From the IMG/VR virus record IMGVR_UViG_3300025913_000024, positions 47,478-111,477 of that record: a DNA stretch of 64,000 bases. One strand, given 5' to 3'. Made by a program: the position numbers and the translations under genes. The DNA is from a virus. Its lineage: Duplodnaviria > Heunggongvirae > Uroviricota > Caudoviricetes. Each line of letters begins with the position of its first letter. Position 1 is the first letter of the stretch. Below, piece after piece: positions 8,299 through 62,986 of this stretch. The notes beneath the pieces were generated by a model, which was not told the origin of the DNA, did not search any database, and saw only the letters and a list, made by a program, of their open reading frames with translations.

Positions 8299-8320
8299 AG
8301 GAAAAGGAAGGAGAAGAGGT

Positions 8321-8614
8321 ATGGTTAAGATCTACACCACCAATAGCTGCGCTGTTTGCAAGCGAGCTAAGACTGATATGCTAGTTAAGGGCATTGCATA
8401 TGAGGAGCACAACGTCGAAGACAACGAACAAGACTTTGACGTGATGATTGAGGCGACTGGAAAAACTGCCGTTCCTCAATTTGACATCGATGGAGAGTGG
8501 GTGGTAGGTTACAACTCTTCGGTCATTGAGAAGGCTTCACGAGATGAAGACGACTTTGAACTTGTTGGAGTAGGTGGACAAGAGTACGCAACTTGCGAAT
8601 CTTGTGAAGGTTAA
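8321..8614 (+). CDS. nrdH: glutaredoxin/NrdH-like redoxin
   Basis: 97 aa with N-terminal CAVC (CxxC) motif in context YTTNSCAVCKRAK; located between nrdA and nrdB. Confidence 0.75.
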   Translation: MVKIYTTNSCAVCKRAKTDMLVKGIAYEEHNVEDNEQDFDVMIEATGKTAVPQFDIDGEWVVGYNSSVIEKASRDEDDFELVGVGGQEYATCESCEG

Positions 8615-8615
8615 C

Positions 8616-9617
8616 ATGGGAATTCTAGATATCCGAGATGAGATGGAGAACAAAGAACTCCATCGAAATCCATACCCACAATTTCTCAAACACTTTACCA
8701 ACGGTGTAGCCAACAACTGGACAGTTGCTGAGATCTCTCTTCAAGACGATCAAGAGCAATGGAACGTTCCTGGAAAGTTGACTGATGAAGAGAAGCAACT
8801 TGTTCTGAAGAACCTTAAGTTCTTCGGAGTTTGTGAAGCTCTTACCATGGACAACGTTGCTGTTGCTATCCTTCCTAGAATTCAAGACGGTTACGTGAGA
8901 ATGGCATTGATTCGCCAAGCTTATGAAGAAGCTCTTCACTCTCAAACCTTCTTGACCATCGCTGAGTCTCTTTCCATTAAGATCTCCGACATCTATCAAG
9001 AGTACAAGGACACGCCTTCTGTTAAGGCCAAGATTGATTTTGTTAATTATCTGATTGGACAAACAGAGAAAGACGGTTTTGATATCACAACGATTGAAGG
9101 TAAGCAAGATCTTCTTCAAGACATGATCGGGTTTTTCCAGATCCTTGAAGGAACCTTCTTCTTCACCAACTTTGCTCAATTGTTCTCTCTTCGTCGAAAG
9201 AACAAGATGAAAGGACTATCCAGCTTCATTGACTACATTGCAAGAGACGAATCTGTTCACATTGCTATCGGCCGAGACCTGATCAACATCATCATCAAAG
9301 AGTATCCCGAGATCTGGACTCCATCTTTTAGAGAAAAAATGAGTACATCTTTTGCAACCGCGGTTAGATTAGAAGATGCTTACTTAAACGATACTATTCC
9401 AGAGACTCTTCTAGGTCTTAATCGAGAATCGTTTAAGGATTACATTCGATTCATTGCCAATCGAAGAATGAAAGGTATTGGTCTAGAAGGTCTTTGGCCT
9501 AACATGAAAAATCCTTTCCCTTGGATGAGTACAGAGAATGATCTCCCTACTGAAACGAACTTCTTCGAGTCTAGACCAAAAGAGTACAAAACTGGCGATG
9601 TCAACATGGACTTCTAA
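8616..9617 (+). CDS. nrdB: ribonucleoside-diphosphate reductase small subunit
   Basis: Di-iron and tyrosyl-radical motifs EALHSQTF, ILEGTFFFTNFAQ and ARDESVHIAIG. ATG at 8616 overlaps the upstream stop codon. Confidence 0.9.
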   Translation: MGILDIRDEMENKELHRNPYPQFLKHFTNGVANNWTVAEISLQDDQEQWNVPGKLTDEEKQLVLKNLKFFGVCEALTMDNVAVAILPRIQDGYVRMALIRQAYEEALHSQTFLTIAESLSIKISDIYQEYKDTPSVKAKIDFVNYLIGQTEKDGFDITTIEGKQDLLQDMIGFFQILEGTFFFTNFAQLFSLRRKNKMKGLSSFIDYIARDESVHIAIGRDLINIIIKEYPEIWTPSFREKMSTSFATAVRLEDAYLNDTIPETLLGLNRESFKDYIRFIANRRMKGIGLEGLWPNMKNPFPWMSTENDLPTETNFFESRPKEYKTGDVNMDF

Positions 9618-19939: not shown

Positions 19940-20066
19940 ATAATGGGATACCTTAAACTGCCCAACAACGGATCTGTCAACAACATATGGACAACGAGAA
20001 TTGCCGGATGTGCTTCGAGTCACTTTTACTCAGACGTTTTTACAATACACGCAAAAGGAAAACATT

Positions 20067-21845
20067 ATGTCAGGTGGAATCACCGGAAGAATGAACAGCG
20101 AATTGCGCGAAGCTATCACTGATAAGCTTTACCGCGATGAGCGCTCCTACCGCGACGACAAGCTCGTTGAAAAGTGGAACAGAATTCCCGAGGTAGGAAA
20201 GAATATTAAGAAGCTCGACGAAGGAACCGCAAGGCTCTTGGCTCGTCACTTGGAAAACCAAGCTCGCTTCATGGGTCGCTTGACTGAGGCCCAACTCTCT
20301 AGCGGATTCCAGGGTTTCTCCCCTGAGAACATGCTTCGTTTGGTTCGTTTGGCATACCCAAACACCATCAGAAACAAGCTCTTCACCGAGTTCGCAATGG
20401 AATCCGCAAAGGACTCCATCAAGTATATCCGCCCTGTCTACACCACCACCGCTAACGGTCAGAACTTGAACGATCGTACCTTCGGTGTTCCTGGTTGGTC
20501 AAACGCTGGCGATGCCTACGATCCTGCCGATCCTTGGAACCTTAACGGTTCGAACGACATCAACAACAGCGACTACCGCAGAGCAATGTACGAAACCAAC
20601 GAAGATCGTTACACCAACCCAATGGCTAACGCTCTTGTTGCAACTTTCGACGGAACTCACACTTGGACCGTTTACGACTCTGTTAAGGCAGTTCAGACGT
20701 TCTCTGCCGTTACCGACACATCAGCTGTTGCTAACGTTGGTGGAACCACTCTAACCCTTAACACCACCGGAACTTGGGTCATCTATGGTACTCTTACCAT
20801 CGGTACCACCCACGCCGCAGTCGGTTCTTCTGCCTTCTCTCTCGGCTACGTCGATGGATACGCTTCTCTCTTCACTGCAGCAGACAGCTATCCTCCTTCC
20901 GCCGGAACTGGTTGGCACCTTCAGGAGCAGAACGTCATCGCTACTCAGAACAAGACTGGCGCTGCTCTCTCCGTTAACGGATCTTGGATGATCAAGTCTG
21001 GATCCACTCTCACCATCACCGCAACCTCCCTCGTTGGTGTGTTCGCTCTCGGTGGTGCAGATGCCGCAAACGTCCGCGGTGGTTATGGCCGTTTTAACCC
21101 AGAAGGTGACTTCCAGGGTAACTTCCTTGGTGAAGTTGAGTTGATCATGACCGACTACTGGTTCAGACCACAGCCAACTACCATTGGTGTTACGTGGAGC
21201 CAGTTGACCGAGCTTGTTCTCGACACCTCCTTCGGAGTTGCCGCTGAGGAGCTCTTGGTTGACTACGCTGGCCAGGAAATCAAGAGATCTCTCGACGTTC
21301 GCGCCGTAAAGATCGCTTACCAAGCCGCCAAGATGAACCCAAGCTACTACACGATCACCTTTGATGCATCCTCTGGAAATAGCACGGACGACTCTTACCT
21401 CTCTACCGCTCAGACCTTCACTCAGGCTATCGCCCGTGTTGCAGACGTTCAATTGAACGATATCAACCGTGGTGGAGTTAGCCGAATGGTTGGTGGACCT
21501 GCAGCAATGACTTACCTCCGCATGGTCGGTGGTTTCTCTGCTAAGGGCCAGATGACCCCAGTCGGTGGTCACCAGATTGGAGAGCTTCAGGGCATTCCAT
21601 TGTTCAAGGTTCCTTCTAACGTCATCCCTGATGACGAGATCCTTTGTGTTTGGAAGAACGACGAGAACGAGGCAGACGTTGCAGTTGCCTTCGGTACCTT
21701 GGTTCCTTTCTTCAGCACTGGTATCATCCAGAGGAAGAACTTCTACAAGGAAGCAGGTCTTTCGACCTACGGTGACTGGAACGTTCTAAACAGACGTTAC
21801 CTTGGTCTTATCAAGATCACCGGTCTCCGCCAGCTCCAGAACTAA
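20067..21845 (+). CDS. major capsid protein, T4 gp23-like
   Basis: N-terminal region (KWNRIPEVGKNIKKLDEGTARLLARHLENQARFMG, then VRLAYPNT) aligns by eye with the T4 gp23 Delta-region (KWKPLLEGEGLPEIANSKQAIIAKIFENQEKDF, then VRRAIPNL). Strong RBS AAAAGGAAAAC; about 592 aa; followed by a terminator. Confidence 0.7.
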   Translation: MSGGITGRMNSELREAITDKLYRDERSYRDDKLVEKWNRIPEVGKNIKKLDEGTARLLARHLENQARFMGRLTEAQLSSGFQGFSPENMLRLVRLAYPNTIRNKLFTEFAMESAKDSIKYIRPVYTTTANGQNLNDRTFGVPGWSNAGDAYDPADPWNLNGSNDINNSDYRRAMYETNEDRYTNPMANALVATFDGTHTWTVYDSVKAVQTFSAVTDTSAVANVGGTTLTLNTTGTWVIYGTLTIGTTHAAVGSSAFSLGYVDGYASLFTAADSYPPSAGTGWHLQEQNVIATQNKTGAALSVNGSWMIKSGSTLTITATSLVGVFALGGADAANVRGGYGRFNPEGDFQGNFLGEVELIMTDYWFRPQPTTIGVTWSQLTELVLDTSFGVAAEELLVDYAGQEIKRSLDVRAVKIAYQAAKMNPSYYTITFDASSGNSTDDSYLSTAQTFTQAIARVADVQLNDINRGGVSRMVGGPAAMTYLRMVGGFSAKGQMTPVGGHQIGELQGIPLFKVPSNVIPDDEILCVWKNDENEADVAVAFGTLVPFFSTGIIQRKNFYKEAGLSTYGDWNVLNRRYLGLIKITGLRQLQN

Positions 21846-25149: not shown

Positions 25150-25162
25150 TGAGATATTGTAG
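25150..25162 (+). promoter_or_regulatory. TGAGATATTGTAG promoter-like motif (only 5 nt before ATG, so a leaderless transcript is possible)
   Basis: Exact consensus copy. No Shine-Dalgarno sequence lies between the motif and ATG 25168. Confidence 0.45.
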
Positions 25163-26381: not shown

Positions 26382-26873
26382 ATGAAAAAATTTATCTTCC
26401 TCGATATTGACGGAGTTCTCGCAACCACTTGGCACAAACGCCTTGAGGATGGAGAGCTCTGTTTCAATGAGGCACCAGTCAGAAACTTTAACGATCTTTG
26501 TACGGCGGTACCTGATGCAAAGATCATCATCACCTCAACATGGCGTCTTGGTAGAACTGTTGATGAGTTGAGAGCTATCTTCAAGTTTAGAGGTTTTCTT
26601 TATCCTGAGAGGATCATCGATAAAACTCTCAGATTCTTCTACAACTACGACCTCAGCGATGGAACCTCTGCATCTAAAGGAGTTCCTAGAGGTGTTGAGA
26701 TCGCTCATTGGATGGATCATCATCTCATTGATGAGGATGAGATCTCCTACTTGATTCTTGATGACGACTCAGACATGATGCTCCGTCAAGGCAACCATTT
26801 CCTTCGAACCAATAGTTCTAGAGGTTTGACTTCGACAAACGTCAAAAGAGCGATTAAGATCCTAAATGGCTAG
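26382..26873 (+). CDS. HAD-superfamily phosphatase (polynucleotide-phosphatase or 5'-nucleotidase-like)
   Basis: Motif I FLDIDGVLA (DxDGV), motif II ITSTW, motif IV LILDDDSD. Confidence 0.55.
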   Translation: MKKFIFLDIDGVLATTWHKRLEDGELCFNEAPVRNFNDLCTAVPDAKIIITSTWRLGRTVDELRAIFKFRGFLYPERIIDKTLRFFYNYDLSDGTSASKGVPRGVEIAHWMDHHLIDEDEISYLILDDDSDMMLRQGNHFLRTNSSRGLTSTNVKRAIKILNG

Positions 26874-28223: not shown

Positions 28224-28652
28224 ATGAGATTCACTCAAGAATGGTTTAGAAACTCACCACAAGAAGAAGTCAAGCTATTGAATGGTGAGGAAGTTTGGGT
28301 CTGCGATTACAGATTCACCTCATTAGGCAACAAGCCTATTCGAGTCATTGTTCCGACTCTTTGTATCATCCACGTCAGTTTTTACGTGGACAAGTACTAT
28401 CCTAGAGGAAACCCGATTCCTGTTGTAGAACTCAAGATCAAGAAGAACGGAAAAGATCTTAAGGTAGAAGACAACACAACGGCCTACAACAACTGGCTGA
28501 AGATCTTTAACGATGAACAAGAGTGCAGAGCTTTCTTCAGAGAACAAATGACCGAAAACCTTGATGACCTAGACGAGTGGGAAAAAGGTCAGATAGAAAG
28601 AGCTGCAGAACTCAGAGCTACAATGCACAAGCTCCTAAAGGAACACGGATGA
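28224..28652 (+). CDS. hypothetical protein (142 aa)
   Basis: Preceded by a 140-nt AT-rich spacer. Confidence 0.5.
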   Translation: MRFTQEWFRNSPQEEVKLLNGEEVWVCDYRFTSLGNKPIRVIVPTLCIIHVSFYVDKYYPRGNPIPVVELKIKKNGKDLKVEDNTTAYNNWLKIFNDEQECRAFFREQMTENLDDLDEWEKGQIERAAELRATMHKLLKEHG

Positions 28653-29449
28653 GCAACAAATTTAAGAACGATTCACTTGGAACAAGGATGAAGGAGAACT
28701 ATGAGAACAGATCAAAGATCTTTCTCCCTCGTAGAACCTACATCATCCTTCGTGTGGATGGCAAAGCTTTTCACACATACACGCGTGGTCTATTAAGGCC
28801 TTTCGACCAGGGTTTGGTCGAAGACATGGACGCTACGGCAATCTACCTTTGCAAGAACATCATGGGTGCTCAGTTCGCCTATGTACAGTCTGACGAGATC
28901 TCTATTCTTCTCACAGACTTTGACACCAACGAGACCCAATCTTGGTTTGACAACAATGTCCAGAAGCTTGCCTCAGTCTCTGCTTCTATGGCAACCTCAG
29001 CTTTCAACAAGGCCAGGATTTCAAGGTTCATGGCTACTACGACAGCAGTTCCTCTCGAGGATGCTGTGGACAAATTGACTTGGGCAGAGTTTGACTCTCG
29101 TGCCTTCCAGATCCCTCAGAAAGTTGAAGTAGAGAACTACTTCATCTGGCGTCAGCAGGATGCTACAAGAAACGCCATCTCCAGTGCTGCTCAATCTGTC
29201 TACTCCCACAAAGAACTTGAGGGAAAGTCTGGAGATGAGAAGCAAGAGATGATGTTTCAGAGAGGCATCAACTTCAACGACTATGATCCTAAGTACAAAA
29301 GAGGTCGTTTGATCGTTACAGAAACTTTTCCAAGTATCTCAGTTACATCAGGTGACATGGCAATTAGAACAAAATGGGTCTCCACGGCCGCTCCTATCTT
29401 CACTCAAGATAGAGATGATCTCTCTGATAGAATTCCAGAAAGTAGGTAA
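28649..29449 (+). CDS. Thg1-like protein (tRNA-His guanylyltransferase family 3'-5' nucleotidyltransferase)
   Basis: Start ATGA overlaps the upstream stop. Motifs ILRVDGKAFHTYTRG, YVQSDEISILL and QKLASVSASMATSAF match the Thg1 signatures VVRLDGRNFHRF, YGQSDEYSFVF and SKFMTHVASQFAS. Confidence 0.75.
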   Translation: MSNKFKNDSLGTRMKENYENRSKIFLPRRTYIILRVDGKAFHTYTRGLLRPFDQGLVEDMDATAIYLCKNIMGAQFAYVQSDEISILLTDFDTNETQSWFDNNVQKLASVSASMATSAFNKARISRFMATTTAVPLEDAVDKLTWAEFDSRAFQIPQKVEVENYFIWRQQDATRNAISSAAQSVYSHKELEGKSGDEKQEMMFQRGINFNDYDPKYKRGRLIVTETFPSISVTSGDMAIRTKWVSTAAPIFTQDRDDLSDRIPESR

Positions 29450-30667: not shown

Positions 30668-31126
30668 ATGTCCAAGACTCCTGCTGAACAACTTTCCATT
30701 GCGATCTCGATCGCTTCGAAGGGCCATGAAGGGGTCTTGGATAAGGGCGGCTCGCCCTACATCCTTCATCCTCTTCACGTGATGAACGCTGTTGCCCATC
30801 TTGGCTATCTGTGCATGGCTGCTGGTGTTCTTCATGACACTATTGAAGACACTGACACCACTGCTCAGAATCTGCGTGACGCTGGTCTCGAAGAGAACGT
30901 GGTCATGACTGTCTTGGCCGTCTCTCGCCCTAATGGAGTTCTCTATGATGACTTCATCAAGGCGATTGGAGCTACCCCCGGTATCGTAGGAACTTGGGCT
31001 CGGGCCATCAAGTTGGCTGACATCGAACACAACTCTACCGTCACTCGCCTCAAGGGTGTGGCTAAGAAGGACTTCGATCGTCTTCAGAAGTATGTCTATG
31101 CATACCAGTATCTGAAGGAAGTGTAA
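30668..31126 (+). CDS. small alarmone hydrolase (RelA/SpoT-type HD domain, Mesh1-like (p)ppGpp hydrolase)
   Basis: HD-domain motifs YILHPLHV and LHDTIEDT match the SpoT/Mesh1 hydrolase signature (HxxxHD...ED). 152 aa is the stand-alone SAH size. Confidence 0.7.
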   Translation: MSKTPAEQLSIAISIASKGHEGVLDKGGSPYILHPLHVMNAVAHLGYLCMAAGVLHDTIEDTDTTAQNLRDAGLEENVVMTVLAVSRPNGVLYDDFIKAIGATPGIVGTWARAIKLADIEHNSTVTRLKGVAKKDFDRLQKYVYAYQYLKEV

Positions 31127-32189: not shown

Positions 32190-32768
32190 AGATTGCAGAA
32201 GCCCGTGAAAAAGTCAAAGATCTCATCTGGAACCAAGCTAATGTCTATGGTGACCAGATCATGAGTCGAGATACTCTCGACGCCATTCGTGCTGTTTTGA
32301 AAGACAGCCAGAGAAAAAGTCAAAGATCTCATCTGGAACCAAGCTAATGTCTATGGTGACCAGATCATGAGTCGAGATACTCTCGACGCCATTCGTGCTG
32401 TTTTGAAAGACAGCCAGAGAAACGCAAAGAAGACTCCCAAGATTGTCAAGACTCCTAATTTCATGGTAGGTCTTCCTAAGTTTGAAGGAAAGATCGGTGA
32501 AGAGATTCCTGTAAAGTTTGGAAACAAAGTTTACAAGACTAGAATCGACCACATGGGAACTCAAAGATTTCTCCCCATCCCCGGCTACGAAAAGTACGCT
32601 GAAGACTTCATGATCGATGGTGGACCTAACGAGTGGATAGCCCGTATGTACAAGGGAGAACTTACTAGTCAGGAAGTTTTCAATCGTAGAATCGGTGGTT
32701 ATAGTATCAGTGGTTTCTGTGATTGCTACCCTAGCTACCAGTGCATCAATCCTCTTTGGGAGACCTGA
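32186..32768 (+). pseudogene. gene disrupted by a perfect 106-bp tandem duplication (N-terminal 43-codon fragment plus restart at 32367)
   Basis: ATG 32186 reads MKIAEAREKVKDLIWNQANVYGDQIMSRDTLDAIRAVLKDSQR and then shifts frame into a stop. The second repeat copy restores the same protein from the internal Met 32367. Removing one copy gives a single intact 168-aa ORF. Confidence 0.7.
32211..32422 (+). repeat. perfect 2 x 106-bp direct tandem duplication
   Basis: 32211-32316 is identical to 32317-32422, read directly. The unit length is not a multiple of 3. Confidence 0.95.
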
Positions 32769-36638: not shown

Positions 36639-36901
36639 GTGGTCCAGCTCCAAAGCATGGACAACCTACCCACCATGAAGCTGTTCATCACGTTTATCTT
36701 ACTGTAGAACAGATGGAGAAGATGACAACTCAACGTCTTCTAGCTTACTTCAAGAAACACTTGATGCATGATCCATTCTATCCTTCCAGTGAAAAAGAAA
36801 AACATGACGAGTGGGAGATGGTTAGAGCTAAAGCTCAAAGTATACTATCAAGTAGAGAACATGTTCCTTCTAAGAGGGAACTCCAAAAGAGAAAGAAATG
36901 A
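36635..36901 (+). CDS. hypothetical protein (88 aa)
   Basis: ATGA overlap. Confidence 0.45.
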   Translation: MSGPAPKHGQPTHHEAVHHVYLTVEQMEKMTTQRLLAYFKKHLMHDPFYPSSEKEKHDEWEMVRAKAQSILSSREHVPSKRELQKRKK

Positions 36902-37320
36902 CACGATACGTTTTAGGTTTTCTTTTTGATGACGAAAAGAACACGGTCGTCTTGATCAAGAAAAACAAGCCTGTTTGGCAAAAAGGTCTCTTGAACGGTG
37001 TTGGTGGGAAGATCGAAGAAGGTGAACTTCCTATAGTCGCTATGGTAAGAGAGTTTGAAGAGGAAACGTCTGTGAAAACAGACAACCTTGATTGGAAGCA
37101 CTTTGCTGGTGTTGAAGGCGAAGGTTACTCCATCGCTTGTTTCTACACCATCAGTTCTGACTACATGAAAAACGTCAAGACCATGGAAGAAGAAGTGATC
37201 GAGATTCGTAGGATTCGAGATCTTCAAGATCTTCCTATAGTCTCCAATCTTCTTTGGTTGGTTCACCTTGCAAAAGATGAAAACAATGGTAACCATCCTA
37301 CTGTTCAAGTAAAGTACTAA
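36898..37320 (+). CDS. Nudix hydrolase
   Basis: Nudix box GGKIEEGELPIVAMVREFEEETSV fits Gx5Ex7REUxEExGU with G replaced by S in the last position. Confidence 0.65.
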   Translation: MTRYVLGFLFDDEKNTVVLIKKNKPVWQKGLLNGVGGKIEEGELPIVAMVREFEEETSVKTDNLDWKHFAGVEGEGYSIACFYTISSDYMKNVKTMEEEVIEIRRIRDLQDLPIVSNLLWLVHLAKDENNGNHPTVQVKY

Positions 37321-37354
37321 ATGACTGTTATTCTTCTGTGTGTACTAATTGTAC

Positions 37355-37816
37355 ATGAGAAGAACCTATAGAATAGAAAAGTCTTTAGATATTGAGGAGT
37401 TCATTAGAATAACTAATGAATCGTTAACCATGAAACAAGCTGCTGTGAAACTTGGTCTTCATTTTAATAGTTTCAGAAGAATAGCAGTAAAGTATGGAGT
37501 TTATCGACCTAATCGTGGAGGCAAAGGAACCCATAAGCATAAAGAAAATGGGACTACACCTCTTACTGAAATTTTGGAAGGAAACCATCCATCATATCAA
37601 ACGTTTAGATTAAAACTTAGATTAATTTCAGAAGGAATTTTTATTCCAGAATGTTCTGAATGCAAAAATACTCAATGGAATAAAAAAGAAATTCCTTTAG
37701 AGTTAGATCACATAGATGGAAATTCTTCTAACCATCTTTTAGACAACTTACGATTGTTATGTCCAAATTGTCATGCACAAACTGAGACGTATAGAGGAAA
37801 AAACAAAAAGTTTTGA
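37355..37816 (+). CDS. free-standing HNH homing endonuclease
   Basis: C-terminal HIDGNSSNHLLDNLRLLCPNCHAQTE (HNH with CxxC). N-terminal HTH-like segment. The gene is markedly AT-rich relative to its flanks. The ORF track starts at TTG 37349; the first ATG is at 37355. Confidence 0.7.
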   Translation: MRRTYRIEKSLDIEEFIRITNESLTMKQAAVKLGLHFNSFRRIAVKYGVYRPNRGGKGTHKHKENGTTPLTEILEGNHPSYQTFRLKLRLISEGIFIPECSECKNTQWNKKEIPLELDHIDGNSSNHLLDNLRLLCPNCHAQTETYRGKNKKF

Positions 37817-37836: not shown

Positions 37837-37947
37837 GCGGGAGTGGAGAAATGGTGAGACTCAGCGGACTTATGAATGCATTCTAACTAGTGCATTGAAT
37901 AAATCCGCTGCTTAAGAGGCGTGCCGGTTCGAGTCCGGTCTCCCGCA
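37837..37947 (+). tRNA. tRNA-like gene with a long variable arm and a roughly 28-nt hairpin insertion in the anticodon loop (possible intron-containing or degenerate tRNA)
   Basis: Acceptor GCGGGAG pairs with CTCCCGC followed by discriminator A. Canonical T-arm GCCGG-TTCGAGT-CCGGT. D-arm GAG/CTC with a GG-containing loop. Anticodon stem GCGGA/TCCGC is separated by 35 nt instead of 7; the first 7 nt CTTATGA would give anticodon UAU. A 14-nt variable region is present. Confidence 0.4.
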
Positions 37948-37995: not shown

Positions 37996-38448
37996 ATGAG
38001 TTATCTCACTGCTACTACTCAGGACATTCAGGACGTCGCTAAGACCCTGATTTATGCCACTGACAAGACCACGTCCCGCGACATTCTGGAGAAGATGCGC
38101 GCCGACAATTACTGGATCAACCAGACCGAGGTCGCTGCTGCGCTTCGTGATCTTCTGGCCACGGATCCTTCCTACGTTCGGACCTTTCAGCCCGATGCCT
38201 CGGTTCCTACCGGTGGCTACTTCATCTACGGCCTTGCGAGCGTGATCAAGACCACGGCCTCTGCCCCTGTCTACCCTGCGAAGGTGAAGAAGGTTCAGAC
38301 TGTTGGTGACTACGAAGCTCGTGACAAGAACGATCCCAACTGGACCCTCGTTCGTTACGACAACGTCACCGAGAACCAGGCCAAGCATCTCTTCTCCGAA
38401 GAGTACGGCGTCGCCTACACTGACGTTCGCGTCAAGAAGGCTGTCTAA
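37996..38448 (+). CDS. hypothetical protein on a GC-rich island (150 aa)
   Basis: RBS AGAGGAGGA. Codon usage and GC differ strongly from the flanks. Followed by a hairpin at 38456-38476. Confidence 0.6.
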   Translation: MSYLTATTQDIQDVAKTLIYATDKTTSRDILEKMRADNYWINQTEVAAALRDLLATDPSYVRTFQPDASVPTGGYFIYGLASVIKTTASAPVYPAKVKKVQTVGDYEARDKNDPNWTLVRYDNVTENQAKHLFSEEYGVAYTDVRVKKAV

Positions 38449-38476: not shown

Positions 38477-38489
38477 TGAGATATTGTAT
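38477..38489 (+). promoter_or_regulatory. TGAGATATTGTAT promoter-like motif
   Basis: Directly after the hairpin and upstream of an ORF-less 140-nt segment ending in a terminator. Confidence 0.45.
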
Positions 38490-38656
38490 ACGTAATGACC
38501 TAGAGCTTGAGCATAGGTTAAGCCAAACGGTAAAGTAAAGGCCGCCAAATAGCAAAAGGGAGGGTTTCTATCTTCTAAAGATCTAAACCACTATATTTTG
38601 TTTTTTTAATAGATTGTTTTTCGAAAAGGGAACCTGTTGGTTCCCTTTTCCTTTTT
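38490..38656 (+). ncRNA. candidate small non-coding RNA (promoter motif, then about 135 nt with no ORF, then an intrinsic terminator)
   Basis: No ORF longer than a few codons. Terminator AAGGGAACC-TGTT-GGTTCCCTT plus TTCCTTTTT at 38626-38656. Confidence 0.3.
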
Positions 38657-38666
38657 GTGAAGAGAA

Positions 38667-38679
38667 TGAGATATTGTAG
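38667..38679 (+). promoter_or_regulatory. TGAGATATTGTAG promoter-like motif upstream of the PARP-like gene
   Basis: Exact consensus, 27 nt before ATG 38707. Confidence 0.5.
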
Positions 38680-38706
38680 ACAACTTATAGTTCATGGAGA
38701 CTACAG

Positions 38707-39917
38707 ATGGCCCGTATTGAAAAGCTGATCATGGTGACCGGTGAAGAGAATCACAACAAGGTCTATGAGCTGATCGACAACGAGAACGGTACTTGTACCG
38801 CCAAGTGGGGTCGGGTTGGCGCTGCTCTTCAGGAGTGCAACTACCCCATCAGCGAGTTTGAAAAGAAGCTCAAGGAAAAGGTCAAGAAGGGCTATCGCGT
38901 GATCACCGATCTTCTGTCTGTCGAGAAAAGTGATGGTAAGACCACCACTACGGACGACGAAGAGGTAAAGATCCAGAACATGTCCCGTGAGGCCATGGAG
39001 TTGATCAACTTCCTCCAGAGTTGTGCTAAGGCATCGTCAAGCAGAACTACACCGTCAAAGTTGCCGACGTTACTCAGAAGCAGATCGACGCTGCTCAGGC
39101 CATCCTGGACGGACTGGTTGCTCTGTCCAACCAGAACTGGTCTCGTGAAGAGGCCAACAAGATCCTTTTGGATCTTTACAACACCATCCCCCGGAAGATG
39201 AGCAACACCAAGAACTTCCTCATCCAGATCGACAACATCACGAAGAAGCGCCTTCAGGAGTTGATCTCCAGTGAAGCCGATCTTCTTGACGTTATGCGCG
39301 GTCAGGTTCAGACCACGAACGTTGCTCCCAAGTCTTCCACTGGCGAAGTCAAGTTGGATATTGAGATTCGTCTCGCTACTCCCGATGAGATCGATGAGAT
39401 CTCCAAGAAGACTGACTTTGATGTTCGTAGTGCTGCAAGGATCTATCGGGTGGAGAACACCAAGACCAAGAATCGCTACGAAAGTATCAACAAGCAGAAT
39501 GAACAGCTTCTCTACCACGGTTCTCGCAGCCAGAACTGGTGGTCGATCATCAACGGCGGTTTGAAGATTCGTCCGACCAACGCCGTTCACACTGGCTCGA
39601 TGTTCTCCGATGGTATCTACGCTGCTGACAAAGCTCAGAAGTCTCTCGGTTACACCGACGGTGGTTATTGGACTGGTAGCAGTGGTTCCTCGAAGAGGTT
39701 CCTCGGCATCTACAGTTTCAACCTCGGTCGTCAGTGGGATCTGTTCGCTGGTGGTCAGCGTCATGCCAGCTGGATGATGCAGCTCAACCTGAAGAAGATC
39801 AACGACAAGGGTTTTGACTCTCTGTTCGCTAAGGGTGGAGCAGATCTTCGCAACAATGAGATGATCGTGTTCGAAGAGGCTCGCTGCACCATCAAGTATC
39901 TGATCGAGATGCGTTAA
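38707..39917 (+). pseudogene. PARP-like ADP-ribosyltransferase (WGR domain, helical region, H-Y-E catalytic domain), split by a -1 frame change near 39027-39032
   Basis: N-terminal WGR motif TAKWGRVGA. C-terminal LLYHGSRSQNWWSIINGGLKIRP ... GSMFSDGIYAADKAQKS ... NEMIVFEEARCTIKYLIE parallels PARP1 [23 protein letters not shown] ... GYMFGKGIYFADMVSKS ... NEYIVYDIAQVNLKYLLK. Frame 1 turns into Ser/Thr/Arg-rich nonsense after ...FLQSCAK. Frame 0 is open from 39030 and reads as sensible protein. A single continuous 403-codon gene needs a 1-nt change. Confidence 0.75.
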
Positions 39918-41378: not shown

Positions 41379-41951
41379 ATGACCATGGAATTTTACGAAG
41401 CAAACTACCAAATCCAGATGGACCCAGTGTTCCTAGAGAACATCAAATGGGGAAAGCCCAGGTCTGGTCACGATGAAGGAACCATTCACGCTCACATCGA
41501 CGAACTTTGTCGAAACCTTGAGAAAGTAGAGAAGATCTCTGATCTGGAGAAGAACAAGCTTCTCTTCATGATCCTTGTTCACGACACTTTTAAGAAGGAT
41601 GCCACTCCGGACTCTGCGATTGAGGATCCTAACTCTCATGCCTCTTTGGCTGTCCAGTACGCCAAGAAGTTCACAGATGACAAGGATGTTTTGACGATCC
41701 TTCAGTACCACGATCTGAACTTCTCTTTGTCCAAGTCTTTCCAGAAGACAGGCTCCTACAACGTAGGAAGGCTCTACAACCTTATTGGAAAGTTAACAGA
41801 TGATGGAGTCAAGCTTCTTATCATCTTCACCTACATTGATGGGTGGACCAAAGGTAAGGACCATAGCAAACTTCCTTGGTTCAAGGATGAGATCCTGAAC
41901 AAGAGGGCCATTCACTGGTCAGAACAATGGATCGAACAATTTAAGGACTAA
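41379..41951 (+). CDS. possible HD-domain phosphohydrolase (190 aa)
   Basis: GHDEGTIHAHIDEL ... ILVHDTFKKD suggests an H...HD...D metal-binding pattern; weak. Confidence 0.35.
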   Translation: MTMEFYEANYQIQMDPVFLENIKWGKPRSGHDEGTIHAHIDELCRNLEKVEKISDLEKNKLLFMILVHDTFKKDATPDSAIEDPNSHASLAVQYAKKFTDDKDVLTILQYHDLNFSLSKSFQKTGSYNVGRLYNLIGKLTDDGVKLLIIFTYIDGWTKGKDHSKLPWFKDEILNKRAIHWSEQWIEQFKD

Positions 41952-52123: not shown

Positions 52124-52518
52124 TATGAACCTATCCTAGTGATCTGAATATAGCTGGCCGTAGGACTGCTTGACGCAGTTCCTGTAGTGTCACGCACATC
52201 GATAGTATCATTGACTGCCAGACGAACAGTCGTCACCAATTGTACACGACCTGAACTACTACCGTCAGAGCCTTGCTTGAATGCACTACCATTTTTGTAA
52301 AGAGTCACAATATGACCTGACGATACTATGCAAAGAGCTGTGATTTGATACACACCAGCTTTAGGCGCGGTAAACTTCCAGGTACCTGTACCTGTGGTTA
52401 CACATGAATCTGTATCTTCAACGAGTGTGGACCAGTTGATCGGAGTGTTAATTGTTGCTGCATCTGAGTTTGAATACTCAGCACGAATGAGGGATGTTTC
52501 CATCCATAGTTTAGCCAT
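52123..52518 (-). CDS. stand-alone C1q-like fibre-tip domain protein (131 aa)
   Basis: Whole protein matches the C-terminal domains of both fibre proteins (WKFTAPKAGVYQITA ... LYKNGSAFK ... SYIQITRIGS); start and stop overlap the neighbours. Confidence 0.55.
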   Translation of the reverse strand: MAKLWMETSLIRAEYSNSDAATINTPINWSTLVEDTDSCVTTGTGTWKFTAPKAGVYQITALCIVSSGHIVTLYKNGSAFKQGSDGSSSGRVQLVTTVRLAVNDTIDVRDTTGTASSSPTASYIQITRIGS

Positions 52519-55500
52519 TAGCTACCGATCCTTGTGATCTGGATCCACACGTTAACGTCTGATGGTTGAGAAGCAGCACTGTCGTTTTGAAGCCAGATCT
52601 GATCTCCTACTACCAATCGAAGAGTGATGTTTGAAGAACCAGAGGTTGCTGTTACTGGAGTGGTACCAAAGTACCTCCATCTAGAACCATTCTTAAAGAT
52701 CTGACAGTTACCTGCTGTTCCTGTGGTATAGGAGTTGGTTTCTACCAAATAGAGTCCAGCAACTGGACAAACGAACTTCCAGCTTGCTCCTGTTGTGACA
52801 GCACTGTGAGTATCTTCCACTTTCGTTTGAAAGTTAAGAACTACGTTAGTTGCCGTGGAAGGAACAGAGATGTACTCAGCTCTAACCATGGATGGTTGTT
52901 CAGCCATGTTTCCATTGCTGACTTTTCTAACTCGCCACTTAACAGTAGAAAACGCACTCCAAGCTGAACCGTTATTGGTTCCATAAGTTGATCCAGGATA
53001 AATACCGCTGTTTCCTATTTCTACTAGAGCTCGTTTCTTGTTGGTTGTGTCTCGTCTTACTTGAACACCATATCTGGCGTTACCTTGAACAGCAAATTCC
53101 ATAAAAGCATAAAGAGGTCCCCAACCTATTCCGTTATCGTTTATCTCTAGAATAAGTTGGTCTGTAGATTGAATCTCTCTAGCAAAGTCAACAGCGTACT
53201 TTGTGGAGAATCCGTTAGAGAAGTCTGTACTGACAACAGCAACAAAAGCACTTCCATCTTGACCAGTTTTTTGTCCTGTGGTAAAGGTGGTGTTGGTAGT
53301 TGTTCCTCCAGATCCATCGTTAGATGCATACTCTGTGAAATCGCTTGCTAGGTTTACATTTGACGACCATTGAGAGATCTTAGCCTGGAAGTAAACTGTG
53401 ATGACGTCTGTAGACGCCCATGTGATTGGGGTGGTTGCTGTCCATGCTGTAGCTCCGTTACCACCAAAGGGGTAACGATACTCCAAGTTAAATCCGATTC
53501 CTCCGCCTAGAAGACCAGGAGATAAATCACCACCATAACGTGAAGATGAGTGGGTTCCTATTGCATATCCAACAGGCCTGAAGGTTGAGGTTAATCCTGA
53601 AGGGAAAAGAACGTTGATCTGACCAGTAACTGCTCCAGATAAGGTGATAGCTATGACACCTTCCAAAAGATCGCCTTTACGCCAAACGTGAGAGTTTGCT
53701 AGGTCGATAGTTCCAGGAACGTTTTGGAAAGACATTTGACCGGCGTACTCTCCACCAATTGCTGCTCCAAGAACTGGAATGAATGGAGTGATAGTAACTT
53801 GATCGATGTTCATGGTCCAAGCAAGAGCGTTTGTTGTGGCAACATGGAAAACCAAACGATAACTTGTTGATGTCGAAGCTGGCCAGAAGGTAGCTGAGAA
53901 ATAGGTTCCAGCTGAAGCAGTTGGAAGAGAGTTTATTGAGATCGGAATGAAGTTCGAGTTTGTCTTATCATATAGATAGGCTAGAATGTCTCCTGCAGCG
54001 TAGTTTGTTGATGTCTTGAAGTAGAAGGACAAACCTAGAGTGGAACCTAGAACAGCCGGATCCAAGGTAAAGTCATATGAGATTCCTTGACCTTGTCTGT
54101 TGGCAGCATCTTTGGTAATTAGACCATCGCCTGTTCCAATGAGAGGTGTTGTTCCATTTCTAGCTAGAGTAAGGACAGCTGTTCCACCAGTTCCATCAAC
54201 TGGCGTTGCTGAAGCTCCATCGTTGTATGTTGCCCAGCCAGAGATATCACTCTCAAATGTTCCATTAGAAATGTAGTTCAATCCACTGGACGGGTTGGTG
54301 AAGATGACGCTAGGGTTGTTCAACAAAACTGTATCAGGGAAAGCTTGAACTGTCCAAAAAGAGATCACTGTTCCAGTTGAGTCTTTTACACTTAAAGAGG
54401 AAAGATCTGGAATGTTAAAGGTGGTTGAACCATCTCCAACTCCATAAGAAGTTCCCCACAATGAGAACAACTGAGAATAAAAAGATCTACCAACAGCAGC
54501 TCCGTTCAATTGTAAGAGGTTTCCTGGAAGAGATCCAACAGAACCTGTCCAAAGAGTTGTTCTTCCAAGTCCTACAAGAGCCGTTGTTCCTGTGATGACT
54601 TGAACAGGCTCACCAATGGTGATCAAGAGGTCGGTGGCGTTGACAGCGATACCGATAGCAACTCTGAAGCTTCCAATGGTGATGGTGTTAGGATCTGTGA
54701 TGACTTGGCCATTTGTACCAAGATAGTAAAAGGTTCCAGGTGTCATTCCTGATCCGAAACCAACCATGATCGAGCCAGAGGCTTGCCAAACAATGGTAGC
54801 TGCAGAAGCTCCTCCATTGAAAGCTATTCCAATAGCAGTAGCTGTTGTCTCGGTGTCGTTGCTAGCGTGTTGAAGTGTTCCAGAGGACGTGATGTAGACC
54901 ACTCTCTTGGTGGTGACTGCGTTTGTTCCTACGGTTCCTGTAGATGAAGCAGAACCTCCAACAGGAGTCCAGTTTGCGTGGGTTGTGTCTGTTGATGGAT
55001 CGTGGTTTAGGTTACCGTTGGCGTTAGAAGAATAGGCAACACCTAATCTGTTGATGATCGCGTATTGGGTGTAGGTAACGTTTGATTGCCAAAGAGGAAG
55101 AGACGAGATTCTAAAAGCTTCTTTGACTGAAGCTTGAGAAGGCGGTTGAGTAGTGGAGTTTGATGCGAAGGTAGCATCATCTATGGCAGCAAGACCAGAC
55201 AAAGCTGAACTGAGACCCGTGACATTAGCTATGACTACGTTAGCAAACACTCCTGAAGCTGATAAAAATTTACCTGCTGCAGTATCACCAGAAGCTGGTG
55301 CAGGAACCACACCTTGAGTTCCACCAGATCCTGAATCTCCTATGAAAGTAGGAAGATGAACCATAACTGAAGAAGGACTGTTAGCTTGAGGAATAGCAGA
55401 ACTTCCTGAAAAGTTACTGAGGATAGCATTGTTTGGTATGCTAGCCATCTTAGTAAGAGTTACTGCTCCGTTTGAGATCGTTGTAGAAAGAGATCCGGCA

Positions 55501-56936
55501 GAGTTTGTTACATCTCCAGTTAAGGCAGGAAACTGAGCAGCCTGTAAGGTTCCTGATACATCAGAGCTAAGAGAGATAGACAAGAGGGTCTTAACTTGAG
55601 AAGGCGTTAATGCGGCTGGAGTGGCTGGAGATCCCGTGTTGTTTCCGATGATAGAGTTGGCTGCCAGGTTTGCCATCTTGGAAAGACCAACTGCTCCAGC
55701 AGAGATGGTAACAGACAATGAGCCTGATGTTGTGGTAGCATCTCCTGTTAAGGCCGGAAATTGAGCAGCTTGAAGAGTTCCAGAGACATCTGTAGAAAGA
55801 GAGATCGCTAGTAAGGTTTTAACTTGAGTTGAGGTCAACTCAGATGGTGCTGCTGAAGAACCTGAAACGTTGCCTAAGATCGATGAGTTGGAGATGTTAG
55901 CCAACATTGACAAGGTGACTTGACTAGCTCCGATTGAGAACTGAGTTCCAGTAAGTGTTAAACCAGAGCCTGCTGTGTAACTAGGAACAGCGGAGAACTG
56001 GACGAAAGTGATGTTTGTGGTTCCTACGGTCAAACCTGAAGTAGGTGTTGTACAAACCCATCCTGTTGAAGCATTTATTGTACCAGAAAGAACTAGAGAG
56101 AAAGCACCGAAGAACTCCGTAGGAGCATCCATACCAACAGATCTTGTAAGAACTACAAAGAGTCCAGCTCCACCGGCGTTGGTGACTGTATAAAGACCAT
56201 TGTGAGGTTGATTTCCTCCTGTCTCGTTCTTAACTAGAACAACATCGCCTAACGAAAGAACAACGCCATCTATGGTTAAGGTTCCACTTCCGTTCATGGT
56301 GATCGTAGCACCGACTCCTGAGGTTCCGTTGGAGTAGGTGTTGGAAGGAAGAGCCGTTGTTGTGGCTACTTTAGCAGAAGATTTGACAGACAAGCCTTGA
56401 GCTGTCATGTCAACGTAGTTCTTGGTAGCGATGTCTTGAGCAGCAGAAGGATCAACGACTTGAGCTCGGCCAGATCCATCTCTTAGAACTGGTTGGTTTA
56501 CTGTTGCTGAAGAGGTTCCTACTACCACCCAAGTTCCACCAGCTGATAAGAACTTATGACTAGAGAAATCTCCAGAGGCTGGAGCTGGAACTAGACCAGC
56601 TGTTCCTCCAGAACCTGAGTCTCCAACCAAGATAGAAAGGTAAGCTGTGATGGCTGAGATCGCTGTAGCGACAGGTATTGCTGGAGACCCTGTGACGTTG
56701 GCTAGAACAGTGTGAGACGCTATGTTTCCTAGACCACCTGCTGCTAAAGCATCTTCTAGGTCTGGGATATCTGAGATCTGAGGATAAGGTTGGTTGTCTC
56801 TCTTGATCCCGTTCTCAGGATCAAACTCCATGGACCTACCATTCTGAGAAATGGTGATCTTAGCTCCGGCCGTGATCTGTCCGGTTGTTTTGAGAGTACC
56901 GGTAAGGATGGATGGAACTAGGAGAGGATTTGCCAT
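52518..56936 (-). CDS. large tail fibre protein (1472 aa) with internal repeats and a C1q-like C-terminal tip
   Basis: Three roughly 72-aa tandem repeats (residues about 336-520). Duplicated FIGDSGSGGTQGVVPAPASGD segment. Central ANRQGQG module. C-terminal ...NVWIQITRIGS. Confidence 0.65.
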   Translation of the reverse strand: MANPLLVPSILTGTLKTTGQITAGAKITISQNGRSMEFDPENGIKRDNQPYPQISDIPDLEDALAAGGLGNIASHTVLANVTGSPAIPVATAISAITAYLSILVGDSGSGGTAGLVPAPASGDFSSHKFLSAGGTWVVVGTSSATVNQPVLRDGSGRAQVVDPSAAQDIATKNYVDMTAQGLSVKSSAKVATTTALPSNTYSNGTSGVGATITMNGSGTLTIDGVVLSLGDVVLVKNETGGNQPHNGLYTVTNAGGAGLFVVLTRSVGMDAPTEFFGAFSLVLSGTINASTGWVCTTPTSGLTVGTTNITFVQFSAVPSYTAGSGLTLTGTQFSIGASQVTLSMLANISNSSILGNVSGSSAAPSELTSTQVKTLLAISLSTDVSGTLQAAQFPALTGDATTTSGSLSVTISAGAVGLSKMANLAANSIIGNNTGSPATPAALTPSQVKTLLSISLSSDVSGTLQAAQFPALTGDVTNSAGSLSTTISNGAVTLTKMASIPNNAILSNFSGSSAIPQANSPSSVMVHLPTFIGDSGSGGTQGVVPAPASGDTAAGKFLSASGVFANVVIANVTGLSSALSGLAAIDDATFASNSTTQPPSQASVKEAFRISSLPLWQSNVTYTQYAIINRLGVAYSSNANGNLNHDPSTDTTHANWTPVGGSASSTGTVGTNAVTTKRVVYITSSGTLQHASNDTETTATAIGIAFNGGASAATIVWQASGSIMVGFGSGMTPGTFYYLGTNGQVITDPNTITIGSFRVAIGIAVNATDLLITIGEPVQVITGTTALVGLGRTTLWTGSVGSLPGNLLQLNGAAVGRSFYSQLFSLWGTSYGVGDGSTTFNIPDLSSLSVKDSTGTVISFWTVQAFPDTVLLNNPSVIFTNPSSGLNYISNGTFESDISGWATYNDGASATPVDGTGGTAVLTLARNGTTPLIGTGDGLITKDAANRQGQGISYDFTLDPAVLGSTLGLSFYFKTSTNYAAGDILAYLYDKTNSNFIPISINSLPTASAGTYFSATFWPASTSTSYRLVFHVATTNALAWTMNIDQVTITPFIPVLGAAIGGEYAGQMSFQNVPGTIDLANSHVWRKGDLLEGVIAITLSGAVTGQINVLFPSGLTSTFRPVGYAIGTHSSSRYGGDLSPGLLGGGIGFNLEYRYPFGGNGATAWTATTPITWASTDVITVYFQAKISQWSSNVNLASDFTEYASNDGSGGTTTNTTFTTGQKTGQDGSAFVAVVSTDFSNGFSTKYAVDFAREIQSTDQLILEINDNGIGWGPLYAFMEFAVQGNARYGVQVRRDTTNKKRALVEIGNSGIYPGSTYGTNNGSAWSAFSTVKWRVRKVSNGNMAEQPSMVRAEYISVPSTATNVVLNFQTKVEDTHSAVTTGASWKFVCPVAGLYLVETNSYTTGTAGNCQIFKNGSRWRYFGTTPVTATSGSSNITLRLVVGDQIWLQNDSAASQPSDVNVWIQITRIGS
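55377..55931 (-). repeat. intragenic imperfect tandem repeats (about 216 bp x 2.5) within the large fibre gene
   Basis: Visible at nucleotide level (GCCATCTTAGTAAGAG... / GCCATCTTGGAAAGAC... / GCCAACATTGACAAGG...) and at protein level (...QVKTLLAISLSTDVSGTLQAAQFPALTGD appears twice). Confidence 0.7.
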
Positions 56937-58998: not shown

Positions 58999-59430
58999 AT
59001 GGTTACAAGAAAAATTTGGCGTTTTGAAAACGAAAAAGGTGAAGGTCCTTATAACGGACACCCTAGTCCAAAATTTCTCTTTAAGTCTACTCATGACGGA
59101 GAGTCTAAGAAACATCCTCATCCCAAGTATGACTTTAAGAACTCTAAGATCATTAGATTCTTAAACAACATGAACACTAAAGATCACTTTAGATGTGGAT
59201 TTTCTACAAAGAAACAGGCATTTGAGTGGTTTACTGAACGAGAAAGAAAGATCTTGAAAAATAATGGCTACAATTTAGTCCGTAAAAATGCAGATAGAAT
59301 CTTTAAAGGAAACAAACAAGTTATCTATATTCGTGAAGGTCATTTAGAAGAACTTGTTAAAGTTTTTCGTTTTGATCATTCTGTTCCAAAAACATTAACA
59401 TCAATATATTCAATCAGGAGCTCAACATGA
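58999..59430 (+). CDS. hypothetical basic protein (143 aa)
   Basis: ATG after the upstream stop; the track ORF starts earlier at 58858 inside the previous gene. Confidence 0.45.
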   Translation: MVTRKIWRFENEKGEGPYNGHPSPKFLFKSTHDGESKKHPHPKYDFKNSKIIRFLNNMNTKDHFRCGFSTKKQAFEWFTERERKILKNNGYNLVRKNADRIFKGNKQVIYIREGHLEELVKVFRFDHSVPKTLTSIYSIRSST

Positions 59431-59978
59431 TGCTACAGACCATTGAAGGAAACCTAATCACTCTCGCCCTTGAAGGCAAGTTCGACATGATCGCTCATGG
59501 TTGTAACTGCTTCCATACCATGGGAGGAGGGATCGCCAAGTCTATTTCTGAGACTTTTCCTGAAGCTCTTCAAGCCGACAGGGTCTTTGGAGAAAGAGGA
59601 AACGTTTGGAAGCTTGGTCAGGCTTCCAAGGCTACGATCTTTCGTGGAGACACTCAGTTTGTTGTGGTGAACCTCTATACTCAGTTTGAGCCTGGAGCCA
59701 ACTTTGAATACTTGGCCTTGATCAACTCTTTAGAGCATCTCAAGAAATACTTGGATATTCATCTCTACGATCGAGTGTCCGATAAACCTTACCGTCTTGG
59801 TTTTCCCAAGATCGGAGCTGGTATTGGTGGTGGAGATTGGGACCAGATCTACCAGATCATTGACCAGTCTCTTGACGAGAAGTATCGTGAGGAACAGGGA
59901 GTCGAAATCACGGTTGTCGAGTTCATTCCTCCTAATCCTCTTCAGGAGATCGTTGTTCGTTCTCTTCAGAAGAAGTAA
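59427..59978 (+). CDS. Macro domain protein (ADP-ribose binding / ADP-ribosyl hydrolase family)
   Basis: N-terminal FDMIAHGCNCFHTMGGGIAKSI parallels the macro motif NAAN..L.GGGV..AI. C-terminal YRLGFPKIGAGIGGGDW parallels the macro motif SIAFPAISTGIYGYP. RBS CAGGAG 6 nt upstream. Confidence 0.7.
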   Translation: MMLQTIEGNLITLALEGKFDMIAHGCNCFHTMGGGIAKSISETFPEALQADRVFGERGNVWKLGQASKATIFRGDTQFVVVNLYTQFEPGANFEYLALINSLEHLKKYLDIHLYDRVSDKPYRLGFPKIGAGIGGGDWDQIYQIIDQSLDEKYREEQGVEITVVEFIPPNPLQEIVVRSLQKK

Positions 59979-62398: not shown

Positions 62399-62986
62399 AT
62401 GGGAAAGACTGCAGTTTTTACATTTGCAAGAATGAATCCTCCAACTTTAGGTCATGAACTATTGCTCTCAGAACTTGTCATTCAAGCCTTAGAAAAGAAA
62501 GCTGATCCATTTCTTTTCCTTTCCCACACAGAAGACTCTAAGAAAAACCCTATTCCTTACGGGAACAAAGTTAAATTTGTCAAAGAACTTTTCAAAGATA
62601 AGTTCCCTGAACTCCATATCTACTCAGGAGAGAGCTGCAAGAACCCTAGAGAAGCTCTCTCTTTCCTTTACAATCTTGACGATTACTCTGAGGTGATTGG
62701 AGTCTTTGGTAGTGATCGAGTGGATGACATGTACGATCTTATGACCAGAGGAAACGGAAAAGAAGGTCTTTCATCTGGTTTCTATCTCTTCAACAAACTC
62801 TCTGTCACATCAGCCGGAGAACGAGACCCAGAACAAGATGGAGTTGAAGGTGTTTCTGCCACTAAACTCCGTGAGTACGCTCTAGAAAATGACTTTGAGT
62901 CCTTCAAAAAAGGTCTTCCAGAGGCTGACGAAACACTAATTAATAACATCTTTCTAACGACCCAACGAGGACTTGAACGTGCCTGA
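62399..62986 (+). CDS. NMN adenylyltransferase-like nucleotidyltransferase (archaeal NadM-type HxGH fold)
   Basis: FARMNPPTLGHELLL parallels GRMQPFHRGHLQVI ((H/T)xGH motif). FLFLSHTEDSKKNPIPYGNKVKFVKELF parallels [38 protein letters not shown] resembles the C-terminal ATP motif. Confidence 0.55.
   Translation: MGKTAVFTFARMNPPTLGHELLLSELVIQALEKKADPFLFLSHTEDSKKNPIPYGNKVKFVKELFKDKFPELHIYSGESCKNPREALSFLYNLDDYSEVIGVFGSDRVDDMYDLMTRGNGKEGLSSGFYLFNKLSVTSAGERDPEQDGVEGVSATKLREYALENDFESFKKGLPEADETLINNIFLTTQRGLERA

Follow-up and report, generated by a model that had tools for sequence, protein, structure and literature searches.

A phage PARP gene broken by one missing nucleotide and the genes that accompany its relatives

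When a PARP gene in a phage contig is split between two reading frames, does the phage lineage still possess the enzyme, how did the split arise, and what might such an enzyme do for a phage? These questions are raised by a locus at 38707-39917 (plus strand) in a 64,000-nucleotide (nt) stretch of the Caudoviricetes record IMGVR_UViG_3300025913_000024 (positions 47,478 to 111,477), which we refer to as the window. The locus encodes WGR, helical, and ADP-ribosyltransferase domains, is PARP1/2-like, and has an intact H-Y-E triad. We find that the PARP gene is functional in the phage lineage and that the frame change is of no biological consequence for that lineage. Our explanation as a whole, which combines a functional PARP, a G lost from a single contig, and a role in break repair, is likely to be correct.

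A compact PARP in two reading frames

The upstream open reading frame (ORF; 38707-39201, plus strand, frame 1, 164 amino acids, or aa) begins with MARIEKLIMVTGEENHNKVYELIDNENGTCTAKWGRVGA, carries TAKWGRVGA within its first 108 residues, and then runs in the wrong frame until a TGA at 39199-39201. Frame 0 has a TAA at 39027-39029; the open stretch behind it starts at 39030, ends with the TAA at 39915-39917, and carries YHGS, DGIYAAD, and NNEMIVF. Joined at the junction, the two pieces give a protein of 403 aa, and the locus is laid out as follows.

38696-38699, plus strand: GGAG, a ribosome-binding site evident from the sequence itself, 7 nt ahead of the start codon (ATG, 38707)
38707-38904, plus strand: WGR domain, residues 1-66, with KWGRVG (PF05406; modeled strands 4-47 and helix 48-60)
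38986-39323, plus strand: helical, regulatory-like domain, residues 94-206, which contains the frame break (phmmer and predicted helices)
39030-39031, plus strand: frame-break site, codons AAG GGC (Lys108-Gly109) in the intact allele, GG in the window versus GGG in the intact allele
39198-39201, plus strand: ATGA overlap, in which the TGA of the out-of-frame N-terminal ORF (39199-39201) lies over the ATG of the conserved Met165 (39198-39200)
39348-39917, plus strand: ADP-ribosyltransferase catalytic domain, residues 215-403 and the stop codon (PF00644)
39516-39518, 39618-39620, and 39858-39860, plus strand: triad codons for His271, Tyr305, and Glu385

The catalytic family PF00644 matches the downstream reading at 80.3 bits (Pfam cutoff, 26.7). 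The WGR family PF05406 is a marginal match, with 22.9 bits on the N-terminal ORF alone (cutoff, 22) and 17.9 bits, under that cutoff, on the repaired protein. Searched with phmmer against solved structures, the joined 403 aa return human PARP1 first (E value, 5.5e-14), in an alignment that runs unbroken over residues 58 to 317 and so crosses the junction and follows the helical domain of PARP1. The protein also matches phrog_23333 over its full length (E value, 7e-49). The Pfam PARP_reg model has no match in the PARP protein, though the alignment follows the PARP1 helical domain and a bundle is modeled at residues 94 to 206; in many bacterial PARPs, PARP_reg likewise goes undetected by Pfam, yet models contain the helical domain (PMC5966428).

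We aligned the joined window protein with 21 homologs, giving an alignment of 22 sequences. H271, Y305, and E385 are invariant in it, as are K312, S313, and Y316 of the nicotinamide pocket, and the motifs that hold the triad (YHGS, GIYAAD, and NNEMIVF) align with HGS, GIYFAD, and YNEYIV of PARP1. An AlphaFold2 model built from this alignment (predicted local distance difference test score, or pLDDT, 81; predicted template modeling score, 0.73) consists of a beta-rich WGR domain at residues 4 to 60, a helical bundle at 94 to 206 with predicted helices at 94-114, 124-141, 147-160, and 180-206, and then the ADP-ribosyltransferase domain. The fold comparison that an earlier, sequence-only reading of the window had proposed for the repaired protein ranks WGR-catalytic chains of PARP1 first: the top Foldseek matches in the PDB are 4opx_C and 4dqy_C (E value of about 6e-19, template modeling score of 0.68, whole query), along with PARP2. 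This whole-chain match lends support to the marginally scored WGR domain. Because Pfam, the sequence search against solved structures, and structure prediction agree, we assign the protein to the PARP1-3 type; on sequence and model, it is a compact WGR-helical-catalytic PARP.

These results uphold the sequence-only reading in its placement of a WGR domain at the N terminus and an H-Y-E catalytic domain behind it (Pfam, phmmer, and the triad invariant in 22 sequences), and its length of 403 codons is right, an identical protein (P0122) being on record. The same reading had taken H-Y-E to suggest a poly- rather than a mono-ADP-ribosylating enzyme, which does not follow. The triad is needed for poly-transfer and is not enough for it: PARP3 has H-Y-E, yet it is a mono-transferase, and the triad does not separate the two kinds of enzyme.

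The phage protein shares with human PARP1 and PARP2 (4dqy, 4opx, and 6x0l) the domain order, the H-Y-E triad, and the donor-site residues K312, S313, and Y316. It differs from them in having 403 aa, about 20 to 22% identity, no match to Pfam PARP_reg, and neither the zinc fingers, the BRCT domain, nor the N-terminal region. As described, the bacterial enzymes HaPARP (Herpetosiphon aurantiacus) and CdPARP (Clostridioides difficile CD160) have the same compact WGR-helical-catalytic layout and a similar size; those are cellular genes paired with PARG, whereas the present gene belongs to a phage and no PARG was recognized in the window. Annotated PARPs of the phages Cellulophaga phi4:1 and phi17:2, Xanthomonas XacN1, and Klebsiella FBKp34 match over the full length at 25 to 28% identity, but the window protein falls in another, mostly metagenomic clade, and its best full-length relatives, among the scored metagenomic candidates, are 53 to 56% identical. 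The PARP family is large, with more than 2,400 metagenome proteins matched among the scored candidates and 219 viral contigs retrieved with two peptide patterns. Phage PARPs were listed in 2014 for Aeromonas phage Aeh1 and Cellulophaga phi4:1 (Perina 2014, PMC4245714) and have been mentioned for jumbo phages (Iyer 2021, PMC7824862), and GenBank records annotate them in Cellulophaga, XacN1, and Klebsiella phages, the family being PHROG 23333. The locus is one more phage example of an already annotated kind of PARP.

Origin of the frame break

The sequence-only reading had put the junction between ...FLQSCAK and GIVKQNYTVKV and had described a single-nucleotide frame change, and both statements hold: one G is missing from a GGG. 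The protein of the homologs at the junction is NFLQSCAKGVVKQNYTVKVADVTQKQ, with an unchanged residue count, and across the junction they read NFLQSCAKGVVKQNYTVKV, such that the two pieces in the window miss no residue. At the DNA level, relatives have GCG AAG GGC, GCC AAG GGC, GCC AAG GGT, or GCA AAG GGA at the site, where the window has GCT AAG G-C. Among the four most similar relatives for which DNA was available, three carry AAG GGC, AAG GGT, or AAG GGA there. On this sequence comparison, the change is a deletion of one G from the G3 run at 39030-39031. A single uninterrupted ORF is absent from the window (the break lies at 39030-39031) and present in a near-identical ENA contig, and all 80 relatives from the viral collection have a single unbroken ORF of 395 to 465 codons.

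The gene shows no other damage. The 21 homologs define 51 invariant columns, and the window protein retains 50 of them (11 of 11 before the break and 39 of 40 after it). Decay of the gene is not apparent. The sole change in an invariant column, G301S, in which the window has a serine for the glycine of the homologs, weighs against the proposed function. An established pseudogene, one of the options raised by the sequence-only reading, is at odds with these retained columns and with the intact gene on the near-identical sibling contig.

That sibling contig was reached through the 150-aa protein encoded next to the PARP gene (37996-38448), which is identical on other contigs, including contig k141_4393686 of ENA ERZ27252312 (305,853 bp). 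We compared it with the window at four loci (L089 to L092) that cover window positions 6239 to 62123, or 55.9 kb. The two are 99.99% identical over this length, with just three differences. Position 40597 is a single-nucleotide polymorphism (SNP). At 39030, a G is missing from the window, and the ENA contig has GCTAAGGGCATC there. The third difference is a tandem duplication of 106 nt, present in the window at 32200-32422 (plus strand, 2.1 copies, 98% identical) and absent from the ENA contig. The duplication disrupts a 158-aa gene starting at 32186, whose copy on the ENA contig is intact; it is the second gene-disrupting difference in the window contig and bears on the quality of that assembly. 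The PARP of the ENA contig is an intact protein of 403 aa, identical to the conceptual repair.

An exact look-up found the intact protein on three contigs (JGI/IMG, Logan, and ENA data). The split products, of 239 aa (P0001) and 164 aa (P0123), are confined to one JGI contig of 111,477 bp, the source of the window. Because the intact protein occurs on three contigs and the split products on one, the break is private to one assembly. Other searches did not add to this set: a megablast against the phage collection with the locus and with its surrounding 20 kb gave no match, a single-protein scan of viral contigs gave no near-identical contig, and a metagenome scan gave relatives at 61% and 34% identity only.

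Two explanations of the private break are live. We lean toward an error made in assembling or sequencing the source contig, an option that the sequence-only reading had listed and that stands with a break confined to one contig. The other explanation, plausible if somewhat short of probable, is that the G deletion is a real loss-of-function (null) allele carried by a phage sub-population, which would make the PARP dispensable under some conditions. Several observations speak for such an allele and weigh against an error. The window and the ENA contig differ by no further 1-nt indel in 55.9 kb, which disfavors a generally error-prone assembly, and all 761 homopolymer runs of at least 3 nt inside long ORFs totaling 20.8 kb are intact, which makes random indel errors rare in this assembly. 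A G3 run is also an unusual site for a consensus-level error, and the 106-nt duplication and the loss of the G may both be signatures of a genuine variant lineage. Against the allele stand one contig versus three with the intact allele, two disruptive indels for a single SNP, which is atypical of natural variation, and the lack of further decay in the gene.

That the split is itself functional is very improbable. Under this proposal, a -1 frameshift at AAG-G would yield full-length PARP, or termination and reinitiation at the ATGA would yield a WGR protein and a catalytic fragment, and it can draw on a junction without residue loss, on the overlap of the upstream stop codon with the ATG of Met165, and on the truncated helical domain of the fragment, PARP1 without its helical domain being constitutively active. 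However, the shift site (U GCU AAG GCA) contains no X XXY YYZ slippery heptamer, a frame-0 TAA lies just 5' of the required shift site, and the RNA at 39000-39120 has no significant structure (minimum free energy, -32.6 kcal/mol versus a shuffled mean of -31.7; z = -0.26). No ribosome-binding site lies at a usable distance before the ATG of Met165, and this ATG at 39198, where the source gene caller began the 239-aa C-terminal fragment, is explained by Met165, which does not vary across the family. With all 80 relatives and the sibling contig carrying a plain intact ORF, the translational frameshift suggested by the sequence-only reading loses its footing, and programmed recoding has at best a very slim chance of being the cause of the split.

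Composition, flanking elements, and other genes of the window

The sequence-only reading had placed the gene on a GC-rich island. Its GC content is indeed raised, at 0.509 versus 0.437 for the window, with a GC content at third codon positions (GC3) of 0.67 to 0.69. The word island overstates this: the gene ranks 7th to 8th of 56, and several window genes, including the capsid gene, match or exceed it, the highest being the neighbor at 37996-38448 (0.552). In three relatives with PARP proteins 54 to 61% identical, the GC contents of the PARP gene and its flanks are 0.479 and 0.427, 0.543 and 0.486, and 0.491 and 0.407, respectively; two of these three share further proteins with the window, including one of 740 aa at 60% identity. 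Because the PARP genes of relatives are also GC richer, the composition is a lasting property of the gene in this lineage, not a sign of recent import.

Two elements lie directly upstream of the gene.

38623-38650, plus strand: terminator-like hairpin of 12 pairs followed by a T-run, just before the copy of GAGATATTGTA at 38668
38668-38678, plus strand: promoter-like motif GAGATATTGTA, lying 29 nt ahead of the PARP ATG

The 11-mer occurs in four exact copies (at 25151, 30019, 38478, and 38668), all on the plus strand and outside the listed plus-strand ORFs; we estimate that chance alone would give about 0.03 exact copies. Three of the four sit 6 to 28 nt before a start codon, and near-copies are found at 2804, 9919, 24760, and 56962. 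The promoter-like motif of the sequence-only reading is therefore a real repeated element in its four exact copies, but it has no match to the sigma-70 consensus; it is probably a phage-specific promoter element. Judging by its sequence, the hairpin, a strong one, ends the upstream unit and shields the PARP gene from it. The plus-strand interval 38478-38660 has about 170 nt free of ORFs, with a copy of the 11-mer at its start (38478) and the terminator-like hairpin at its end, and may be considered a candidate small RNA; a search of Rfam with the ORF-free 38490-38660 gave no match.

The phage character of the window is evident from genes for a ribonucleotide reductase (5806-9617), a gp23-like capsid protein (20001-21845), a tail-collar fiber (52518-56936), and an M23 peptidase. 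Because the sibling ENA contig measures 305,853 bp, we regard the source as a jumbo phage with a genome of at least 306 kb.

A set of RNA and tRNA repair genes is also present in the window. It includes a HAD_SAK_2 "Swiss army knife" domain (26382-26873), a Thg1-like 3'-5' polymerase/nucleotidyltransferase (28577-29449), and two HD-domain proteins (30668-31126 and 41379-41951). The window Thg1 is 56% identical to a homolog near a PARP gene in another phage.

Upstream of the PARP locus, an HNH endonuclease gene (37349-37816, plus strand) lies between the Nudix and tRNA genes. It has the lowest GC content of the 56 genes (0.318; GC3, 0.21) and is probably a mobile homing endonuclease. The adjoining tRNA gene (37837-37947, plus strand) has a long variable arm and a 28-nt, hairpin-containing insertion in its anticodon loop. 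It was missed by the default scan and matches RF00005 at 42 bits (E value, 5.5e-8). ARAGORN with intron detection reads it as tRNA-Ile(tat) with a 28-nt intron at 37/38, and Leu(UAA) can also be read; a group I intron would be much longer than the insert. The gene sits beside an HNH gene in a phage with Thg1 and RNA-repair genes.

Gene neighbors of phage PARPs and a possible role

To describe the surroundings of phage PARP genes, we took 86 loci (80 from the viral collection and 6 others), which fall into 23 groups at 70% PARP identity, and clustered every ORF lying no more than 10 kb from the PARP gene. The recurring neighbors are as follows.

Unannotated protein of about 150-280 aa (winged-helix family): 10 of 23 PARP groups
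ATP-dependent DNA ligase: 6 of 23
GIY-YIG homing endonuclease: 5 of 23
RlaP RNA-repair nucleotidyltransferase: 5 of 23
Thg1: 4 of 23
Macro-domain protein directly upstream of PARP, median gap of -4 nt: 4 of 23 (49 loci)
UvsW helicase: 3 of 23
T4 Rnl1-type RNA ligase: 3 of 23
Second RNA ligase family (RtcB also in one locus): 3 of 23

The window carries its own members of the winged-helix and Macro families.

37996-38448, plus strand: conserved PARP-neighbor gene, 150 aa, GC content of 0.552, the most frequent PARP neighbor
59427-59978, plus strand: Macro-domain protein (PF01661, 26.6 bits; phrog_335, E value of 3e-53; matches to solved macrodomain structures)

A profile search places the family of 37996-38448 within 10 kb of PARP in the 10 groups, and its gene abuts PARP in L006, L007, L012, L013, L053, and L055; the window protein is 35% identical to the PARP-adjacent gene in L007. 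In the model of the window protein (pLDDT, 76), a winged helix at the N terminus is followed by a linker, disordered and in many cases acidic, and by a small C-terminal domain, in which the family conserves a T-x-N-Q-A-R/K-Y ... D-V-R motif. The winged-helix domain is similar to the ArgR DNA-binding domain (E value, 0.002), a fold search returns generic winged-helix regulators only (E values, 0.02 to 0.1), and the protein matches no Pfam or PHROG family. At 49 loci that belong to a large clade, for example L036 and L061 (L061:9507-9971), a Macro gene of about 155 aa ends a few bases from the PARP start, an arrangement that suggests an operon in which a writer is paired with an eraser. These PARP-adjacent Macro genes are only distantly related to the one in the window, which from its sequence is a possible ADP-ribose eraser. 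Overall, the recurring neighbors point to the biology of nucleic acid breaks and their repair in preference to NAD+ counter-defense.

In PARP1-3, activation follows the binding of a DNA break by the WGR domain and the unfolding of the helical domain. By analogy with these enzymes and with HaPARP, the WGR domain of the phage protein would sense a nucleic acid break, upon which the helical domain would release the catalytic domain. Host NAD+ could then serve to ADP-ribosylate the enzyme itself, partner proteins, or nucleic acid ends. The PARP would act within a phage toolkit for DNA and RNA breaks, beside ligases and RNA-repair enzymes, with the winged-helix neighbor (37996-38448) probably as its partner or substrate and a Macro-domain hydrolase reversing the modification. 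Among the bacterial enzymes, HaPARP requires DNA, and CdPARP makes poly(ADP-ribose) in vitro (PMC8120803). We thus infer a break-activated ADP-ribosyltransferase that uses host NAD+. A more ambitious proposal, which we rate as quite unlikely, is that large phages possess a self-contained break-sensing module in which a WGR-PARP writer, a winged-helix target or recruiter, and a Macro eraser, set amid ligase and RNA-repair genes, mark or protect the broken ends of phage DNA or RNA.

The T4 enzymes Alt, ModA, and ModB suggest another role. Like the present protein, they are phage-encoded, NAD+-dependent ADP-ribosyltransferases; unlike it, they are members of the R-S-E (cholera-toxin-like) clade, have neither a WGR nor a helical domain, and target host RNA polymerase and other host proteins. 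A phage PARP could take over the host in this manner by acting on host proteins or the NAD+ pool, or it could counter defenses based on NAD+ or ADP-ribosylation, as the sequence-only reading had proposed. It is well established that some phage ADP-ribosyltransferases modify host RNA polymerase, and a review suggests that phage PARPs act likewise (Iyer et al. 2021, PMC7824862). The window also contains, as that reading had stated, both the Macro gene (59427-59978) and a Nudix gene (36898-37320), the latter with a weak resemblance to MutT-type enzymes. Nevertheless, the PARP keeps its WGR and helical domains, which implies regulation that depends on nucleic acids, and a simple toxin or host modifier has no need of such control; the recurring neighbors are ligases and RNA-repair enzymes, not takeover genes; and a PARP consumes NAD+ and would worsen its depletion.

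No enzyme of NAD+ salvage could be verified in the window. No ORF of at least 50 aa in the window has an HxGH motif, and the NMNAT reported by the sequence-only reading finds no support: it is probably the gene at 62399-62986 (plus strand), the lone candidate, which encodes a HIGH-family nucleotidyltransferase with a TLGH motif and is cytidylyltransferase-like, matching phage "cytidyltransferase" families (phrog_3041, E value of 6e-44), and for which neither NCBIfam nor the solved structures gave a match that could tell its substrate. No Nampt was found by Pfam in window ORFs of Nampt size, a scan that did not take in all small ORFs. Neither pair of enzymes of the NAD+ reconstitution pathways (Nampt with NMNAT, or Adps with Namat) was found among the window ORFs scanned, and PADLOC matched no defense system there. 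We therefore consider host takeover or counter-defense doubtful, though not far-fetched.

A role in break repair has its own difficulties. The argument for function is drawn entirely from gene neighborhood, ligases are absent from this window, and the window Macro gene lies 20 kb from the PARP gene. Our literature searches returned annotations and review remarks only and no experimental study of a phage PARP. All of these points weigh against the break-repair reading.

The frame change, the most striking part of the finding, adds nothing biological. What goes beyond existing annotation is only the conserved winged-helix partner and the association with repair genes, and this neighborhood association offers a concrete, testable hypothesis for the role of phage PARPs. 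PARP-type enzymes are central to DNA-damage signaling in eukaryotes. If the break-sensing module were real, it would give prokaryotic viruses a counterpart of the damage signaling carried out by eukaryotic PARP1-3, and it might be an evolutionary source of that signaling.

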